Of a DNA stretch of 35,847 nt, positions 20,187-35,847 are shown one piece after another (the stretch's first letter is position 1; each line of letters opens with the position of its first letter). Source of the stretch: a virus; IMG/VR virus record IMGVR_UViG_3300045988_138743. The stretch is one strand, 5' to 3'. The notes under the pieces were generated by a model, which did no database searches, had not been told where the DNA came from, and saw only the letters and a list, made by a program, of their open reading frames with translations. A program made the translations under genes and the position numbers.

Positions 20187-20203
20187 ATCAAATTTAATTT
20201 GAT
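20187..20203. promoter_or_regulatory. Operator-like 17-bp palindrome O1 (ATCAAATTTAATTTGAT)
   Basis: Perfect palindrome immediately 3' of the cro-like stop codon. Confidence 0.6.
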
Positions 20204-20436: not shown

Positions 20437-20465
20437 ATAGTATATCAAATTAAATTTGATGTCAA
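20437..20465 (-). promoter_or_regulatory. Early (cro-side) promoter
   Basis: On the minus strand: TTGACA, 17 nt, TACTAT. The spacer is filled by operator O2. Confidence 0.6.
20444..20460. promoter_or_regulatory. Operator-like palindrome O2 (ATCAAATTAAATTTGAT)
   Basis: 16 of 17 positions identical to O1, with the same TATATCAAATT flank. Confidence 0.6.
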
Positions 20466-20547: not shown

Positions 20548-21189
20548 ATGGTTAAAGATAAGCAAAAAGCTATTTTTTCAAAAAACCTTAATTCTTATAT
20601 CGCAAAAAGTGAAAAGACACAGCTTGAAATTGCCAAATCAATTGGCGTATCTCCTCAAACCTTTAATACATGGTGCAAAGGAATAGCCATTCCTCGAATG
20701 GGAAAAGTACAAGCTTTGGCTGATTACTTTAATATAAATAAGTCTGATTTAATAGAAGATAAGAAATTAAATATAGATACTGTGCCAATAGAATCCGGCT
20801 ACACTATCCCAGTACTCGGTCGTGTTGCTGCTGGATATGGGAAAGAAGCTGTTGAGGAAGTAATCGGTCAAATAGAGATTTCTCCCGCTTTAGCTGCAAA
20901 GGGTGATTACTTCGGTCTGCTGATTAAGGGTGACAGCATGATACCTACTCTGTATGATGGTGATACCGTTATCGTACAACGTGTCGATGATGCCGAATCA
21001 GGTGATCTTGTGATTGCTCTCGTCAATGGACATGATGCAACTTGCAAACGATTGCAGAAATATGCAGAAGGGATTGCTCTCATACCACAGAATCCTGTAT
21101 ATGAGCCTATGCGTTTTACTGAATCAGAAATAGATACTACCCCGGTTAAGATACTTGGTAAAGTCATTGAAATGAGAAGAAAATTTTAA
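20548..21189 (+). CDS. CI-like repressor (XRE HTH plus S24 LexA-type autopeptidase)
   Basis: HTH is TQLEIAKSIGVSPQTFNTWCKG. Ala-Gly cleavage site in RVAAGYG. GDSM catalytic Ser and a downstream Lys in ATCKRL. Confidence 0.9.
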   Translation: MVKDKQKAIFSKNLNSYIAKSEKTQLEIAKSIGVSPQTFNTWCKGIAIPRMGKVQALADYFNINKSDLIEDKKLNIDTVPIESGYTIPVLGRVAAGYGKEAVEEVIGQIEISPALAAKGDYFGLLIKGDSMIPTLYDGDTVIVQRVDDAESGDLVIALVNGHDATCKRLQKYAEGIALIPQNPVYEPMRFTESEIDTTPVKILGKVIEMRRKF

Positions 21190-21259: not shown

Positions 21260-21952
21260 ATGCGAAAGAAAATATATAATATTCTTAACCAAAATGCCAT
21301 TTATGATACATTTATGTTTACAGTCATAATTATGAGCATTGTTCCATTGGCTTTTGTTAAACAACAATCCTGGATGACATTAATTGATAGGATAACTGTT
21401 ATCATTTTTATTGTTGATTATATTTTACGGTGGTTCGTAGCTGATAAGCTTAGTAATAAGCTTAATAAATTTATACTATATCCACTAACTCCAATGGCGA
21501 TAATTGATTTATTGTCCATTCTTCCATCAATAACATTATTGAATAGCAGCTTTAAGTTACTAAAAATTTTTAGATTATTTAGATCTCTGCGATTACTTAA
21601 GATTTTAAAGTTAGTTAGATATTCTAAAAGCATTACTATGATTTGTAATGTTTTCAAAAAGCAAAAAGAGACATTTATTACCATATTGGTCATGGCTATT
21701 ACATATATTCTGGTTTCAGCTCTGGTAATCATTAATGTTGAGCCAGAAACGTTCCCAACATATTTTGATGCCCTATATTGGGCTACGATATCATTAACCA
21801 CTGTTGGTTATGGTGATGTGTATGCAGTAACTACAATCGGAAAAATTATTACTATGATTTCATCTTTCCTAGGAATTGCTGTTGTCGCCTTACCGGCTGG
21901 TATAATAACGTCAGGTTTAATGGATGAATTAAGCAAATCACATGATGAATAG
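21260..21952 (+). CDS. 6-TM voltage-gated-type potassium channel
   Basis: Selectivity filter TTVGYGD. S4-like helix with a basic residue every third position (LLKIFRLFRSLRLLKILKLVRY). Six hydrophobic segments. RBS aagggag. Confidence 0.85.
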   Translation: MRKKIYNILNQNAIYDTFMFTVIIMSIVPLAFVKQQSWMTLIDRITVIIFIVDYILRWFVADKLSNKLNKFILYPLTPMAIIDLLSILPSITLLNSSFKLLKIFRLFRSLRLLKILKLVRYSKSITMICNVFKKQKETFITILVMAITYILVSALVIINVEPETFPTYFDALYWATISLTTVGYGDVYAVTTIGKIITMISSFLGIAVVALPAGIITSGLMDELSKSHDE

Positions 21953-21975
21953 CATAAGTTTAAGGAGGAATTTAT

Positions 21976-22824
21976 ATGGCAATGATTAAATGCCCTGAAT
22001 GTGGAAAAGATATTTCTAATCAGTCAGACAAATGTATATACTGTGGTTTTCCTATAAGAAATGAAGATATGATAGTCTGTAGCAACTGCGGAGTTCTTAA
22101 CCAGGCAGGAAGTACATTCTGCTCTTCCTGTGGTAATCCTCTGGTTAAAGGTATTACTGCTCCGTCAACGGCAAAGGCACATAAATCTGCTAATAAGAAA
22201 AAACACTCAAAGAAACGACATAGTAAAGCACCTCTTTTTATGTCCATATTCTTCTTATTACTAATTTTAATAGCAGTCATTGTTTTCAGATGGGCTATTC
22301 AATCAGGCAGACTTGAAGTTGTAATAAAGGATCCTGATACAAATGAAAGCTATCAGCTCATATCAAGTAGCGGTTTGTTCAATGTTGCATTAACAATTCC
22401 TGCAGAATATGTTGAAGGCACAACTCAAAAGGAGCTCAATAAACAAGCCAAGGAAGGAACTTTTAAATCTGCCACACTGAACAAAGATGGAAGTGTTACA
22501 TATGTCATGAGTAAATCTCAACACAAGGAAATGTTGAACACGCTTAAGGATTCTATCGCAGATGAACTTAATAAAATTCCTAACTCTACCGACTATCCAA
22601 ATGTAACTAAAGTCGAAGCCAATGACGATTATACCAAATTTACTGTTACCACAGCCAGTACAGAGCTTTCGTTTGAGGAGCAATTTCTTAGTGTCCAGCT
22701 TTACATATATGGAGGAATGTATAATGCATTTAATAATTTATCCCCTGTTATATCTGTTGATTATGTAAATGCAGACTCCGGAGCTACAATTTACTCTGGA
22801 AAATCCTCTGATATAACTAATTAA
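21976..22824 (+). CDS. Double zinc-ribbon membrane protein with an extracytoplasmic C-terminal domain
   Basis: CPECG..CIYCG and CSNCG..CSSCG motifs, a K-rich linker, TM segment LFMSIFFLLLILIAVIVF, then about 170 aa of soluble domain. RBS aaggagg, 23 nt after the channel gene. Confidence 0.75.
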   Translation: MAMIKCPECGKDISNQSDKCIYCGFPIRNEDMIVCSNCGVLNQAGSTFCSSCGNPLVKGITAPSTAKAHKSANKKKHSKKRHSKAPLFMSIFFLLLILIAVIVFRWAIQSGRLEVVIKDPDTNESYQLISSSGLFNVALTIPAEYVEGTTQKELNKQAKEGTFKSATLNKDGSVTYVMSKSQHKEMLNTLKDSIADELNKIPNSTDYPNVTKVEANDDYTKFTVTTASTELSFEEQFLSVQLYIYGGMYNAFNNLSPVISVDYVNADSGATIYSGKSSDITN

Positions 22825-23307: not shown

Positions 23308-24987
23308 ATGTCTAAAACTGTCGCTATCTATGTCAGGGTTTCCACAGGGAAACAGGCTGACAGAGACTCTATCCCTTTTCAGATTCAGGAATGCTCCAAC
23401 TATGTGAAGCATTTTCTTAAAACTGAAAATTTTGAAGTATTCAAGGATGCTGGGCGCTCCGGCAAGAACACTCACCGTCCGGAGTATCAGAGAATGATTG
23501 AAAAGGTCAAAGCCGGCATGATTTCTCATGTCGTGGTGTACAAGATCGACCGTATTTCACGTAATCTCGTGGACTTCTCTATCATGTACAATGATTTCAA
23601 AGAGCACAAGGTTGCATTCATCTCTTTAAATGAGCAGTTCGACACCTCTAGTGCCATCGGTGAAGCCGTGCTCAAGATTATCCTCGTGTTTGCTGAGCTT
23701 GAGCGTAAGCTCACAGGTGAGCGTGTGCGTGACATCATGATGAACCGCGCGCTCGATGGCAAGTGGAACGGTGCCAGGGTGCCGTATGGCTGGGACTGGG
23801 ATACAAAGAAGCAATGCCCGGTGCATTCTGATACTGAGGCAGAATATGCCCGGATGATGTACAGGCTCTATGATGAGTGCCACTCTACCTGTGTGGTGCG
23901 TGATTACTGTAATGCTCACGACATCCCGACCAAGCGTGGCGGTGAGTGGACCAGCAAGACCGTTGCTGATTTTCTGAGGAATCCTATGAATGTCGGTGAT
24001 TATCGCTACAATTATAGGAAATCTGCCAGAGGTAAGAGGAATGATCCGTCTGAGGTTATCTATGTGAAGGATGTATTTCCACCTCTTATTGACAGAGAGC
24101 TCTATGAGAGGGTGACTCATCAGATGGACCTGAACACCTTCGGACTCGGCAAGGATGGGCGCAAGGTGGTCAGCAAGAAGACTCATGTGTTCGGCGGTCT
24201 TGTCGTGTGTGGTCTGTGCGGGGCTTTCTATCACTCCGATGCCGATGTGGTCAGAGCCGATGGTTTCAGGCCATCGAATTATCGATGCGGTGCTCACAAC
24301 AAAAAAATTCACTGCAAGGCAAAGGGCACCTCTGATGTGAAGCTCGGACCGTTTATCTTCAACTATATCTCAAATCTGGTCAAGGCTTCCAAGTCAAAGA
24401 AACTGCTGCACTCTGTCTCTGATCTGGAGCAGATACTCCTCACCGGCCCGGAGTTTGAGCAGGTGGCAGGCATCGCTGACATTGGACTGGATGTCACCTT
24501 TGACACTATCATGCATGGTTTCAAACCGAAGCGGTACACTGCTGCACCTTATACCGTCATCCGCTCCGGTGATTCTGATGCACTCACAGCAAAAAGAGAT
24601 AAGACCATCCGAGCGCTTGAGAGGCTCAAGAAGCTGTTTTTATTTGAAGATGATGCAATGAGTGAAAAAGAATATCTGATGTCTAAGAGGGAGCTTGAGG
24701 GCACGCTCAGCGATATAGAAAATGAGCTGTCAGCTCTTGAAGCCGACACTGCAGATACAAAATACGATGATATGTCTTTCATCTCCACTGCATCCGGATT
24801 TTTAATTGCTCATCAGATTGCATCAGGTGAGCACATCAACTACAGGGAGCTCTCCTGTGCCGTAGATGCAAAGGTGCTTAAGGATTTTGTGAACAGTGTG
24901 ATTGAGAGGATTGTTCTGCTGGACGGACGCGTGGCTTCGATAGAGTTTAAGAACGGACTCGTTCACGAGTTCCTTTACAGAGAATAA
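23308..24987 (+). CDS. int: Large serine recombinase (phage integrase)
   Basis: N-terminal resolvase motif VAIYVRVSTGKQ. Recombinase domain and Cys cluster CGLCG...YRCGAH. C-terminal coiled coil. 559 aa. Confidence 0.9.
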   Translation: MSKTVAIYVRVSTGKQADRDSIPFQIQECSNYVKHFLKTENFEVFKDAGRSGKNTHRPEYQRMIEKVKAGMISHVVVYKIDRISRNLVDFSIMYNDFKEHKVAFISLNEQFDTSSAIGEAVLKIILVFAELERKLTGERVRDIMMNRALDGKWNGARVPYGWDWDTKKQCPVHSDTEAEYARMMYRLYDECHSTCVVRDYCNAHDIPTKRGGEWTSKTVADFLRNPMNVGDYRYNYRKSARGKRNDPSEVIYVKDVFPPLIDRELYERVTHQMDLNTFGLGKDGRKVVSKKTHVFGGLVVCGLCGAFYHSDADVVRADGFRPSNYRCGAHNKKIHCKAKGTSDVKLGPFIFNYISNLVKASKSKKLLHSVSDLEQILLTGPEFEQVAGIADIGLDVTFDTIMHGFKPKRYTAAPYTVIRSGDSDALTAKRDKTIRALERLKKLFLFEDDAMSEKEYLMSKRELEGTLSDIENELSALEADTADTKYDDMSFISTASGFLIAHQIASGEHINYRELSCAVDAKVLKDFVNSVIERIVLLDGRVASIEFKNGLVHEFLYRE

Positions 24988-25057: not shown

Positions 25058-25252
25058 TTACAAGGTTTTAGGCATCTTGTTTTTAGAGTTCATCTGACAC
25101 CCGAAGGTCTTTAAAAACAAGGTTAGTGGTCTTCCCAGTTCTTCGGACTTTTTCTTGACATACTGCCTAGCCTTTGCCATGTAGTAGTACTGTCTCTCAG
25201 GCTCGTGGGTTGGCGGTGTCTGGGTGATATCTATGTCATCTAAGTTAATCAT
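25058..25252 (-). pseudogene. miaB: miaB 5' fragment (N-terminal about 54 codons of tRNA methylthiotransferase MiaB), phage-borne
   Basis: ...ELGRPLTLFLKTFGCQMN matches the MiaB UPF0004 N-terminal signature (T[YF]GCQMN). It then diverges to SKNKMPKTL-stop. Has its own RBS agaggaaa. Confidence 0.6.
25076..25121. other. Candidate attP: 46-bp imperfect palindrome centred in the GCQMN codons
   Basis: CTTGTTTTTAgAG (25076..25088) pairs with CTtTAAAAACAAG (25109..25121), with 20-nt spacing. About 90 nt downstream of int. Confidence 0.4.
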
Positions 25253-25295
25253 GTGTTTTTCCTCTCTTAATTAATCTCATGTGAGTATAGCACAT

Positions 25296-27407: not shown

Positions 27408-27564
27408 GATGTCTCTCCTTTCGTTCTGTGCATTTGTATTAATGTTGTTCATAAGCTTGCGCCCCTTTCTTTATATTATAAGAGCCGGCACCTCATTTGG
27501 TGTCGGCTCCTAGGCTCTATTTGTTAGTTACATATTAAATTTTATATTTTCTATCTCGCTCCCT

Positions 27565-27580
27565 AACCAGAGTTTAAGTA
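27565..27580. repeat. Inverted repeat IR-L of the putative invertible segment
   Basis: aaccagagtttaagta. Its reverse-complement partner at 28251..28266 matches 15 of 16 positions, including a 12-bp perfect core. Confidence 0.85.
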
Positions 27581-27921
27581 GCTTAACAAATGGCAAAATA
27601 ACTATTAAAAATGATATTATGGGAACAATGATTGGTAAGATATGTTTTATATATTACAAACATATTATCAGTGGTGTTGTAAAAAATAAGGAATATTTCC
27701 TAGAAAATGTAACTAATCTCGGATTACCATTGCCATTAATGAAGCCTGATTTCCCGACTTTAACATCTCCAATGTTTATGGTGGCTGGTGATTGGAGTAC
27801 CCCTACTGCCGCAATAGCCGCATTACAATTAAAAGCTGATGGTACATTATCATGGGTATCATCACATGGACATACAGAACCTCTTACTTACATGGGATTC
27901 ATTGCATATATTGCAAAATAA
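27577..27921 (+). CDS. Silent alternative C-terminal exon (V2) of the small tail-fibre protein
   Basis: The open frame runs from 27514 with no ATG or RBS until 27619. It is in frame with IR-L (NQSL-SSLTNGKITIK...). Distantly resembles V1 (LGL and GD motifs, similar length). Confidence 0.5.
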   Translation, partial: SSLTNGKITIKNDIMGTMIGKICFIYYKHIISGVVKNKEYFLENVTNLGLPLPLMKPDFPTLTSPMFMVAGDWSTPTAAIAALQLKADGTLSWVSSHGHTEPLTYMGFIAYIAK

Positions 27922-27924
27922 TTA

Positions 27925-28380
27925 TTAGTCATGATAAAATAGTATATAATTTACTCTAATATTACAACTAGCGGTTACTTTATCTTTCCATACGACATAG
28001 ATACCAGTTGTTGTGATTGTTGGCGATTCAAGATGCCCTGAAAATGCTGCACCATCACCGTTTGTAATTGATACACAAAGATTATTGAAATTGAATGTTG
28101 ATGAAGATAATCCTAGTTCAGAAATAACATCATTTTTTGACAATAGTAAACATGAGTTATTTCCCGGTAAAATTTCAAGTATTTTGGTACTCATCTTCAT
28201 GATGGAAATATTCCCTAAACTATTTAATTTATTAAGATCTGTCTTTAGATTACCTAAACTCTGGTTTAATGCACTTATAGCTCCAGTACACGTTCCATCC
28301 CCTATCTTGGATATGTCCTTTTTTCCTATCCGCTTTGTGATAAAATACTTTAATCCTGTAAGATCCAAATATTTTGCCAT
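27925..28380 (-). CDS. Small tail-fibre / receptor-binding protein (38-aa constant N-terminus plus variable part V1 in the expressed orientation)
   Basis: N-terminus MAKYLDLTGLKYFITK parallels the upstream fibre N-terminus MENKYLNLTGAVYIISK. AT-rich. IR-R lies at codons 39..44. Confidence 0.7.
   Translation of the reverse strand: MAKYLDLTGLKYFITKRIGKKDISKIGDGTCTGAISALNQSLGNLKTDLNKLNSLGNISIMKMSTKILEILPGNNSCLLLSKNDVISELGLSSSTFNFNNLCVSITNGDGAAFSGHLESPTITTTGIYVVWKDKVTASCNIRVNYILFYHD
28251..28266. repeat. Inverted repeat IR-R of the putative invertible segment
   Basis: tacctaaactctggtt is the reverse complement of aaccagagtttaggta. Confidence 0.85.
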
Positions 28381-28395
28381 TTTTTCTCCTTCTTT

Positions 28396-29268
28396 CTATG
28401 CAAATGCCGCATCTATTTCACTATTGGTTATTGCAACCATATCCGACTGCTTTATATAGCTGCTTAGGTCAATTTCTCTTGTACCTAATTTTTCATACTT
28501 ATTGTTAATCCATAAATATTCATCATACACATTCTGTCCTCTTCCAGAATTGGCAATTAAATAAAACGTTCCCTTAACGCCTGTTGATGGCAATGTCTGC
28601 ACTACTTGAAAATCCAATTTAGTAATACCGGCCATCGCTGTTGAAATGGCCGATGTTACAAATGCTGTTGATGCGGCCTGAGTATTATTTGTACCAGCTG
28701 ATGCTGTTGGCACTTTAGGTGTACCAGTAAAAGACGGACTCGCTATAGGTGCTTTCTTAGTTAGCTCAGCCTGTACTGCCTTGTTTTGTACCGGGTTTGT
28801 TGAAGTGCTACTCAGTTCACTATCTACTGTTGTCTTATTTGCACCTTCCGCTATTCCATCAAGCTTTTTCTTATCACTTACTGACATAAGACCATGTGCA
28901 GTCTGTGTTGCATCAGAATAAGTTGTATTTGTCGGTGCTCCATATGTACCATCCCCTCGTAAATACTTTCCATAATCGCCAGCTGCCGGTGCAGGTACCA
29001 ATCCTGACGTTCCAGCTGCTGAAGCTGTTGCACCTTTCATAACAGCATACGTTGTATTTTCTTTCGGTGGTGTATATCCAAGTGCTTTTATTACATTATC
29101 ACTTGTAAGCTCTCCTCTGATAGTTTGTGATGATTTGTTTTCAACATTGCCTAATCCGATTTCTTCCTTTGAATGTGTGTGTCCTTTATCACTTTTATCT
29201 TCCAATAGAGTTTTAATTTTACTAATGATGTATACCGCACCTGTAAGATTTAAATATTTATTTTCCAT
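28396..29268 (-). CDS. Tail fibre protein
   Basis: Motifs GHTHSKEEIGLGNVENK, GLVPAPAAGD, HGLMSVSDKKKLDGIAEGAN and ASPSFTGTPKVPTA are recurrent tail-fibre motifs. Confidence 0.8.
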   Translation of the reverse strand: MENKYLNLTGAVYIISKIKTLLEDKSDKGHTHSKEEIGLGNVENKSSQTIRGELTSDNVIKALGYTPPKENTTYAVMKGATASAAGTSGLVPAPAAGDYGKYLRGDGTYGAPTNTTYSDATQTAHGLMSVSDKKKLDGIAEGANKTTVDSELSSTSTNPVQNKAVQAELTKKAPIASPSFTGTPKVPTASAGTNNTQAASTAFVTSAISTAMAGITKLDFQVVQTLPSTGVKGTFYLIANSGRGQNVYDEYLWINNKYEKLGTREIDLSSYIKQSDMVAITNSEIDAAFA

Positions 29269-29286: not shown

Positions 29287-29559
29287 CTAAAGTCCATTAA
29301 ATATAGCCTCTATTTCTTCAATGGTAATAGCATTATCATTATTAACTGCATTCACCTCCTCCGGGGTGTATGATGGTTTGTTTTGTGCTTTAGCCCATTC
29401 TGGTATGGTTGGATCTGTCTCATACATATCTCCTGATATTTCTTTTCCATTCAAGCGGGGTTTGTTTTTTAGCTGTTCATAATCATCCATTATGTATATT
29501 TGCTCACATTCAATTCTTAATTCAGTATCATTTTCCATTTCAAGTTCAATTTCTGTCAT
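29287..29559 (-). CDS. Tail-fibre-associated small protein
   Basis: YEQLKNKPRLNGKEISGD and PEWAKAQNKPSYTPEEV are motifs common in Firmicutes fibre modules. Confidence 0.5.
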   Translation of the reverse strand: MTEIELEMENDTELRIECEQIYIMDDYEQLKNKPRLNGKEISGDMYETDPTIPEWAKAQNKPSYTPEEVNAVNNDNAITIEEIEAIFNGL

Positions 29560-35653: not shown

Positions 35654-35847
35654 ATATCACACCCACTTTCTTTTTCTCGACCTCCTGCCACACTTCAAGG
35701 CACTCATTAAAAAAAATGGGATCCGAGTTAAAAAATTCATTTTCGCTCATACCCATCATTCTTGCAGCTACCATGTATTCAGCCCAGTTTATTTCGATTT
35801 CTTCTTTTTCCTCTTCCTGGTCTGTGGCTGATTCTTTTTTGTGGCTT
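35640..35847 (-). CDS. gpT-like -1 frame extension of the tail assembly chaperone (G-T fusion product)
   Basis: The -1 frame from the A9 run reads RSHKKESATDQEEEKEEIEINWAEYMVAARMMGMSENEFFNSDPIFFNECLEVWQEVEKKKVGVIYGRQ. Its TGA (35640..35642) overlaps the tape measure start codon region. Confidence 0.7.
   Translation of the reverse strand, partial: SHKKESATDQEEEKEEIEINWAEYMVAARMMGMSENEFFNSDPIFFNECLEVWQEVEKKKVGVIYGRQ
35793..35847. repeat. Terminal overlap, identical to 1..55
   Basis: Same 55-mer as the window start. Position fixed from the plus-strand ORF ending at 35831. Confidence 0.9.

Follow-up and report, generated by a model that had tools for sequence, protein, structure and literature searches.

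How can a temperate phage exchange the tip of a putative receptor-binding protein by DNA inversion when no small invertase gene lies beside the switch? This question is raised by a 35,847-nt stretch of viral DNA, IMG/VR virus record IMGVR_UViG_3300045988_138743 (the whole stretch is hereafter called the window), which is a complete, circularly permuted genome of a temperate siphophage of ~35.8 kb; position 35847 joins position 1 in related prophages. The host of this phage is Agathobacter rectalis, based on the source names of the fibre and related proteins and on the prophage flanks, and prophage copies are embedded in contigs of ~50-400 kb with host genes adjacent. Downstream of a tail-fibre gene for a protein of 290 amino acids (aa), two inverted repeats, IR-L and IR-R, delimit a 702-bp segment with two alternative C-terminal tips for a 151-aa protein. 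We propose that this segment belongs, as an orphan module, to the tyrosine-recombinase shufflons of the Rin or R64 kind and that it is probably flipped or exchanged in trans, and rarely so. The module consists of the following elements:

27565-28266, both strands: two-cassette invertible module, defined by its sites, their codon phase and comparison with relatives.
27925..28380, minus strand: expressed gene of 151 aa (translation), constant N-terminus plus tip A, located between the 290-aa fibre gene and the endolysin gene.
28267..28380, minus strand: constant segment, codons 1-38 (MAKYLDLTGLKYFITKRIGKKDISKIGDGTCTGAISAL), with 97-99% identity across all relatives of the window type, whichever tip they carry.
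28251..28266, minus strand: proximal site IR-R, with its core AACCAGAGTTTA at 28255-28266, encoding N-Q-S-L.
27928..28250, minus strand: cassette A, the expressed tip, 109 aa after NQSL; the silent partner in flipped relatives.
27581..27921, plus strand: cassette B, the silent tip, 114 aa after NQSL; lacks its own start upstream of 27619, fused in relatives.
27565..27580, plus strand: distal site IR-L, with its core AACCAGAGTTTA at 27565-27576.

The initial annotation of this DNA, made from the sequence alone, had described the repeat, its codon phase and the two converging frames, and all three stand. IR-L (AACCAGAGTTTAAGTA) agrees with IR-R, read as its reverse complement (AACCAGAGTTTAGGTA), at 15 of 16 positions, including a perfect 12-bp core. 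Residues N39-Q-S-L-G-N44 of the 151-aa protein (codons 39..44) are encoded on IR-R, while IR-L reads N-Q-S-L-S-S in the same phase of a plus-strand frame that is open from 27514 and has its first in-frame ATG at 27619. The stop codons of both frames (27919-27921 on the plus strand, 27925-27927 on the minus strand) are only 3 nt apart, and tips A and B have no detectable similarity to each other. The position of the 151-aa gene and an N-terminal motif in common with the upstream fibre suggest that its product is a protein of the tail-fibre or receptor-binding type. The 151-aa protein, which belongs to a 90% cluster of 470 members, gave no match to a Pfam or PHROG family, nor did silent tip B in a PHROGs search.

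The inverted repeat as such is of little weight. We generated first-order Markov sequences with the base-transition frequencies of the window and counted perfect 12-bp inverted pairs with arms 100-1500 nt apart. About four overlapping 12-mer inverted pairs are expected, with at least one pair in 93% of the simulated sequences, and the window itself contains 12 perfect 12-mer inverted pairs, corresponding to about six independent repeats. A 12-bp inverted repeat is thus unremarkable by chance, and its significance has to come from the codon phase and from comparative data. A perfect inverted match of 13 bp (AAATGGCAAAATA) also occurs between 27588-27600 in cassette B (T-N-G-K-I) and 28370-28382, which covers the ribosome-binding-site spacer and the start of the 151-aa gene (M-A-K-Y); this match is probably due to chance since cassette B is also found in phages with a different gene start.

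Comparative data were obtained by collecting relatives with the 290-aa fibre as anchor (35 from IMG/VR, eight ENA prophages and 33 metagenome contigs). The initial annotation had predicted an in-frame replacement of the 109-aa tip by one of 114 aa on the 38-aa N-terminus, and this is indeed what the flipped relatives display. In L012, which was compared directly with five relatives (L002, L003, L005, L009 and L016), the 702-bp segment is inverted with breakpoints inside the repeats (L012 3917-4618 versus 7704-7003), at 96-98% identity, gapless and with collinear flanks. Comparison of the junctions of L002 and L012 places the crossover within ACCAGAGTTTAG. The prophages L038-L045 as well as L069 and L095 likewise have the segment inverted, with breakpoints inside the repeats, so that tip B is on. 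Public assemblies contain the predicted fusion of 156 aa (constant N-terminus plus tip B) at full length and 93-97% identity, with variant P0008 in 345 blocks of the collection searched and the other variants (P0001-P0016) in 1-36 contigs each. Several B-on alleles are distinct from each other (P0001, P0008, P0016 and the L069 type). Contigs of 777 bp, which were checked as possible assembly breaks at mixed orientations, are low-coverage fragments.

The same sites also delimit cassette replacement. Homology with relatives that carry other tips ends at IR-R, and the left homology break with MT837651 and other cassette types coincides with IR-L. Relatives whose flanks are 98-99% identical to the window have other tip pairs between the same sites, namely D/E (606 bp), C/G (659-692 bp) and H/I (671 bp). 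Every silent cassette starts with NQSL in phase, followed by a frame that is open for 97-128 aa, and at least ten tip types exist, all starting with (N)QSL. Both cores are perfect in 36 of the 37 window-type loci with two cassettes; the exception is L012, with one C-to-T change in the distal core's outer half. In single-tip relatives the distal site is either degenerate (AACCAGAGTTAA, reading N-Q-S-stop) or absent. Across 43 distinct site contexts the core CCAGAGTTTA(G) is invariant, the inner side is conserved and the outer side is variable. Conservation thus covers ~13-16 bp and is one-sided (inner arm), with a weak TAAAC...GTTTA dyad. Judged by these comparisons, the segment is a true invertible cassette of which the C-terminal tip is swapped in frame, and inversion at these sites has very likely occurred in this phage lineage.

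In place of the module, five related loci (L024, L032, L071, L113 and L117) have one tip of 338 aa, which weakly matches GDSL/SGNH esterases; a distal site is absent. This tip may act as an enzyme that modifies the receptor.

Which enzyme could act on these sites? Pfam and PHROGs searches of all sizeable open reading frames revealed no recombinase in the window other than its large serine integrase, consistent with the initial annotation, which had noted the absence of a small invertase. It had also advised a search of related phages for the same repeat and a linked invertase; the same sites were found, whereas a linked small serine invertase was absent from the 166 related loci fetched (1.45 Mb), and a tyrosine recombinase was encountered instead in a second family of A. 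rectalis prophages. The connection between both families is made by tip B, which also follows unrelated N-termini (P0019, P0020, P0022 and P0027), joined at the same A-L-N-Q-S-L junction. In the phages L046 and L047, the cassette pair lies between these same two sites, proximal and distal, with a 348-aa tyrosine recombinase gene directly after the distal one and further sites beyond. The recombinase, accession WP_306785012.1, is XerA/XerC/XerD-like, without an arm-binding domain, and the R, K, H, R, H and Y residues are conserved when compared with XerD (1a0p). It is distinct from the 436-aa tyrosine integrase of the same prophage, its source names point to A. rectalis, and its closest relative among GenBank phages shares less than 37% identity.

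The number of sites follows the state of this gene. At the 16 loci with a full-length recombinase, 3-8 CCAGAGTTTA cores occur in alternating orientation within a few kb, where 0.01-0.03 are expected per locus; L050, in which the recombinase match covers residues 14-348, has five sites. The 25 loci with a truncated recombinase (residues 113-348 or part of these) have a single site and a single tip. In addition, the outer flanks of the sites are specific for their position, and the cassettes (the inner sequences) change positions between genomes. Recombinase genes may be only 0-1 nt apart, yet the cassette pairs are flipped or swapped, e.g., L157/L160, L159/L165 and L162/L159. By this measure of rearrangement between near-identical genomes, the shufflon is active in the recombinase-bearing phages. 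A form of the shufflon phage that appears frozen (L051-L063 and a subset of L099-L155), with the recombinase reduced to residues 113-348 and one site and one tip left, has two or three tandem 7-aa TLNQSVT repeats, near-copies of the site, which precede the site.

The window-type tips A, B, C, D, E, G and I are the same tips as those in the recombinase-bearing shufflon. When flanks of 8-10 kb are compared, both phage families have no DNA in common except the cassette pair, which is shared from one site to the other, as illustrated by four pairs of a window-type and a recombinase phage:

L038 (window-type) and L047 (recombinase phage): 709 bp, 98.6% identity.
L023 (window-type) and L048 (recombinase phage): 670 bp, 97.3% identity.
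L025 (window-type) and L049 (recombinase phage): 693 bp, 90.5% identity.
L017 (window-type) and L049 (recombinase phage): 605 bp, inverted, 90.4% identity.

At the proximal junction, 25 bases are identical between the window and the shufflon phage, and proteins of both families are named Agathobacter rectalis in their sources. A homologue of the recombinase is absent from the window and from every window-type locus; tblastn of the window with the 348-aa sequence likewise gave no match. In total, four kinds of constant region are joined to tips at an ALNQSL or DELNQSL junction. Two of them, ...ASQGKILNDKYDEL|NQSL and ...ANQGRILKNGLDEV|NQSL (L101 and a subset of L105-L153), occur on IMG/VR contigs of 30-61 kb, in modules with two sites that draw on the same pool of tips, and the fetched stretches contain no recombinase homologue.

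Based on these observations we propose the following mechanism. The XerD-like recombinase would recognise the conserved inner arm and core (CCAGAGTTTAG-TA), with strand exchange within the core. Recombination between the inverted sites (core CCAGAGTTTA) would then exchange tip A (109 aa) for the unrelated tip B (114 aa) on the 38-aa N-terminus. The enzyme would be supplied by the second, unrelated A. rectalis prophage family, where it is encoded beside or inside a shufflon of 4-8 sites. The orphan module would be a client that is inverted only in cells that also contain this recombinase or one of its close paralogues, as in polylysogens, and whole cassette pairs would be exchanged between phage genomes under the same condition. 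Since the enzyme must be co-resident, the orientation in the window phage would be stable over short timescales. The one-sided conservation of the sites would explain why only inversions are seen, despite the directly repeated sites in the larger arrays. The initial annotation had considered a host invertase acting in trans; supply in trans is retained here, with the tyrosine recombinase of a co-resident prophage as the presumed source in place of a host enzyme. That the XerD-like tyrosine recombinase of another prophage is responsible, in trans, we regard as somewhat more likely than not. More tentatively, since we would rather bet against it than for it, several unrelated phage families of one gut bacterium may share a pool of tip cassettes, each pair bounded by the same sites, with the tyrosine recombinase encoded in a single large prophage family; a phage of this family would be the server that flips the modules of its clients and mediates cassette exchange, a communal host-range toolkit. 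Such a toolkit would work somewhat like integron cassettes, but for phage receptor-binding proteins.

Several observations weigh against this explanation. The link between the enzyme and the sites is associative, being based on adjacency, site multiplicity and co-loss; that the recombinase acts on these sites, and does so in trans on the window phage, is deduced from this association. Both prophages were not found together in one genome, and the recombinase-bearing and window-type contigs have no sample overlap in the few places listed, a comparison that is uninformative. The 40 complete 702-bp modules fall into 18 alleles, with 28 loci A-on and 12 B-on, and not a single allele occurs in both orientations. 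The allele group of the window (internal difference of 0-7 nt) is always A-on; the B-on alleles are 15-28 nt away from it, and from their nearest A-on allele they differ by at least 15 of 702 nt. In-situ flipping in the window phage is therefore rare at best, and the orientation variants could be separate imports of the cassette pair. These orientations were compared across assemblies of different genomes, and since assemblies show the majority state only, low-level switching is compatible with them. Counts for the ratio of non-synonymous to synonymous change (dN/dS) between silent and expressed alleles, where tip B tends to values of at least 1, are too small to interpret. We read the orphan module as undergoing rare inversion or import, as expected with an enzyme that is supplied by another prophage. 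The role of the tips is a further weak point. They presumably bind receptors, so that a swap would alter receptor specificity, but the tips match no family: Pfam gave only sub-threshold hints for ten tips (Gp53-like_C for tip E, GDSL for tip J). Structure prediction of both fusions, as advised by the initial annotation, did yield AlphaFold models, with a mean predicted local distance difference test (pLDDT) score of 52.6 for the N-terminus with tip A and 41.4 with tip B, too low to search for or assign folds. In both low-confidence models, a beta-rich domain comes after N-terminal helices around the NQSL junction, an arrangement that is no more than suggestive.

The alternative that survives best, although we consider it unlikely, is a frozen relic: the pair would derive from a shufflon phage by import, through site-specific or short-homology recombination, and would no longer flip, the A-on and B-on states being independent imports or ancient events. 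It accounts well for an orientation that follows allele lineage throughout the 40 modules. Moreover, recombinase phage L047 carries the nearest match to the commonest B-on allele, with 10 mismatches against 23-28 for the main A-on alleles, the 25 identical bases at the proximal junction could support short-homology exchange, and decayed versions do occur in the form of N-Q-S-stop distal sites and single-tip loci. A relic is more difficult to reconcile with the intact cores at nearly all two-cassette loci and with silent tips that remain open and in phase. The existence of several distinct B-on alleles argues in the same direction. Import, too, needs breakage at both 13-bp sites, which would most simply be achieved by the same recombinase at the sites of the window phage.

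Serine recombinases provide two other candidates. The first, a small Hin/Gin-type invertase of the host or another element that acts in trans with AAACC-AG-AGTTT as a hix/gix-like site, is improbable in our view. The proximal site TAAACC-AG-AGTTTA does have weak dyad symmetry and some likeness to gix (TAAACC-GA-GGTTTT). Action in trans is also known for serine invertases: Gin can be complemented by Pin, and Mpi is a global invertase of Bacteroides (cited in PMC6109161). Against such an enzyme, conservation of the present sites is confined to the inner arm, apparently unlike the two-armed 26-bp hix/gix sites, and the sites cluster around a tyrosine recombinase; the hix/gix-like reading in the initial annotation is not supported. 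No small serine invertase gene lies near the 166 related loci, where Hin-like matches were obtained only in large serine integrase genes, and tblastn of the window with a Hin sequence matched only the catalytic domain of the integrase.

The second candidate is that integrase itself:

23308..24987, plus strand: large serine integrase of 559 aa, outside the switch; Pfam Resolvase, Recombinase and Zn_ribbon_recom.

Inversion of the segment by a second activity of this protein, as the initial annotation had also suggested, is still more doubtful. The integrase is the only recombinase of the genome, and the PHROG family 'DNA invertase' is among the matches of its N-terminal domain. Its attP/attB core, TGTCAGATGAA at ~25089 as found by comparison of attL, attR and attP, is however unlike the inverted repeat, and the window has no further copies of it with one mismatch or less. 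Large serine recombinases normally join attP with attB and not two like sites. Furthermore, the same sites and cassettes work in phages that have a 436-aa tyrosine integrase. The attP core lies inside a phage-borne 5' end of a MiaB-like radical-SAM methylthiotransferase gene (~25089-25275), so that integration replaces the 5' end of the host gene. Finally, a chance repeat next to an ordinary independent gene at 27619..27921 on the plus strand, for which one could cite the expected frequency of 12-bp inverted repeats at this spacing in a window of this size and the 100-aa open reading frame called there by gene callers (P0024, P0026), is refuted by the flipped state with its exact breakpoints, the full-length fusion proteins, the sharing of cassettes from site to site, the other tip pairs between the same sites and the core conserved in 43 contexts.

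Among known systems, the Rin shufflon of Bifidobacterium breve and B. longum prophages comes closest to the module. There, a receptor-binding protein gene has a constant N-terminal part and dissimilar C-terminal cassettes, inversions map to 11-bp asymmetric rix sites, and an armless XerD-like tyrosine recombinase, distinct from the integrase, is encoded at the array's edge (Mavrich et al., 2018; PMC6109161). The A. rectalis system likewise has a constant N-terminus with dissimilar cassettes, short asymmetric sites, inversions at these sites and an armless XerD-like enzyme. The host phylum, the proteins and the site (CCAGAGTTTA here, TTCCCTAACCC in Rin) differ, and the recombinases were compared by description only. 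In addition, the window lacks the recombinase, and the cassette pool is here spread over several unrelated phage families. A second locus, in the tRNA-Met-integrated bifidoprophages 689b-1 and Bb423phi2, resembles the window in its lack of a recombinase: a ~500-bp segment is inverted between the two related prophages at an 8-bp repeat, no recombinase flanks it, and supply of an invertase in trans was the authors' proposal (PMC6109161). As in the window, the inverted segment contains the 3' end of a structural gene and a small gene. In the bifidoprophages no enzyme or donor was identified, whereas the sites and cassettes of the window can be traced to a recombinase-bearing shufflon of the same host. 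A gut temperate phage, the BV01-like phage of Phocaeicola vulgatus, has a 1.7-kb multi-cassette shufflon that overlaps the tail-fibre gene at its distal end, with a flanking recombinase, 10-bp directional motifs and all configurations present in reads (preprint PMC13596623). Its host and sequences are other than those of the window, its recombinase is linked, and no orphan copies in other phages were reported.

In the serine invertase systems, i.e., Mu G/Gin, P1 C/Cin, e14 P/Pin and p15B Min, C-termini of tail fibres are swapped by inversion and host range changes accordingly, and Gin, Cin and Pin complement each other in trans (PMC6109161). The likeness to Mu G and P1 C put forward in the initial annotation holds for the inverted repeats inside the fibre gene and the in-frame tip swap by inversion, but not for the enzyme class, as the same sites adjoin a tyrosine recombinase elsewhere. 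The Gin/Cin/Pin/Min systems rely on an adjacent small serine invertase of ~190 aa, 26-bp two-armed sites and a Fis-dependent enhancer; such an invertase is present neither in the window nor in the 166 loci. In the R64/IncI shufflon, the tyrosine recombinase Rci, encoded next to the array, swaps the C-terminus of the PilV adhesin by multiple inversions. Its sfx sites are asymmetric, with one conserved arm and a spacer and a variable other arm, and give rise to inversions only, without deletions. The C-terminus swap and the one-sided sites are thus similar to those of the window, although R64 concerns a plasmid-encoded pilus adhesin instead of a phage fibre; to our knowledge, no orphan R64 modules on other replicons have been described. 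With tyrosine-recombinase shufflons the window has in common the short asymmetric inverted sites, the dissimilar in-frame cassettes and the rearrangement breakpoints at the sites. The presumed cognate recombinase, absent from this complete genome, is present in a second phage family, and the window module is hence an orphan part and not a complete shufflon.

Literature searches yielded no description of the A. rectalis system. What appears to be new is the host and the site family, an orphan module traced to a recombinase-bearing donor system of the same host species, and the evidence, drawn from genome comparison, that site-bounded cassette pairs circulate between unrelated phages. A. rectalis is among the most abundant Firmicutes of the human gut. 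The presence of a tip-swapping module implies that host range is not fixed by the consensus genome, and the silent cassette is misread in virome surveys that annotate it as an independent 'hypothetical gene'. Should the switch rely on the recombinase of another prophage, host-range variation would depend on which prophages are co-resident. Such a dependence of one phage on another was only hinted at before (PMC6109161). Site-bounded pairs in unrelated phages also suggest how receptor-binding domains may be exchanged as modules, by a mechanism that is concrete and can be tested, and a short site together with one recombinase could serve the engineering of tail-fibre tips.

The genomic setting of the module is as follows. 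The minus strand encodes replication, packaging, head and tail genes, leading to the tape measure, tail proteins and the 290-aa tail fibre; downstream follow the 151-aa gene, a GH25 endolysin and a holin (Pfam, PHROGs). The plus strand encodes an S24/HTH (helix-turn-helix) repressor, an ion-channel gene, a zinc-ribbon gene and the 559-aa large serine recombinase. The anchor used for the collection of relatives is:

28396..29268, minus strand: tail-fibre gene of 290 aa; PHROG tail-fibre families, and in one source 'Tail fiber protein, Agathobacter rectalis'.

This fibre is encoded on more than 1000 contigs of the public collection searched. Among GenBank phages, the unannotated MT837651 is the only window-type record, and a scan of genome contigs with the fibre gave one distant match, in Thomasclavelia.

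Some minor features of the window deserve mention. A 17-bp inverted repeat (ATCAAATTTAATTTGAT, 20187-20203 and 20444-20460) just 5' of the S24-peptidase/HTH repressor gene (20548..21189) resembles an operator pair. Cargo on the lysogeny side, at 21260-22824, includes an ion-channel protein of 230 aa (Ion_trans / Ion_trans_2) and a double zinc-ribbon protein of 282 aa. A GC-rich hairpin (GAGCCGGCACC...GGTGTCGGCTC, 27483-27511) is located between the distal site and the start of the endolysin gene and is kept in relatives; a terminator scan did not call it. Two sets of direct repeats connect the fibre region. A 20-nt repeat (28355-28374 and 29240-29259) joins the 5' ends of the 151-aa gene and the 290-aa fibre gene and encodes the N-terminal motif KYLxLTG common to both proteins, while a second repeat (28402-28435 and 29299-29332) corresponds to a C-terminal motif common to the 290-aa fibre and the upstream 90-aa protein. 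The recurrence of these motifs in the 151-aa, 290-aa and 90-aa proteins suggests that they are shared docking modules.

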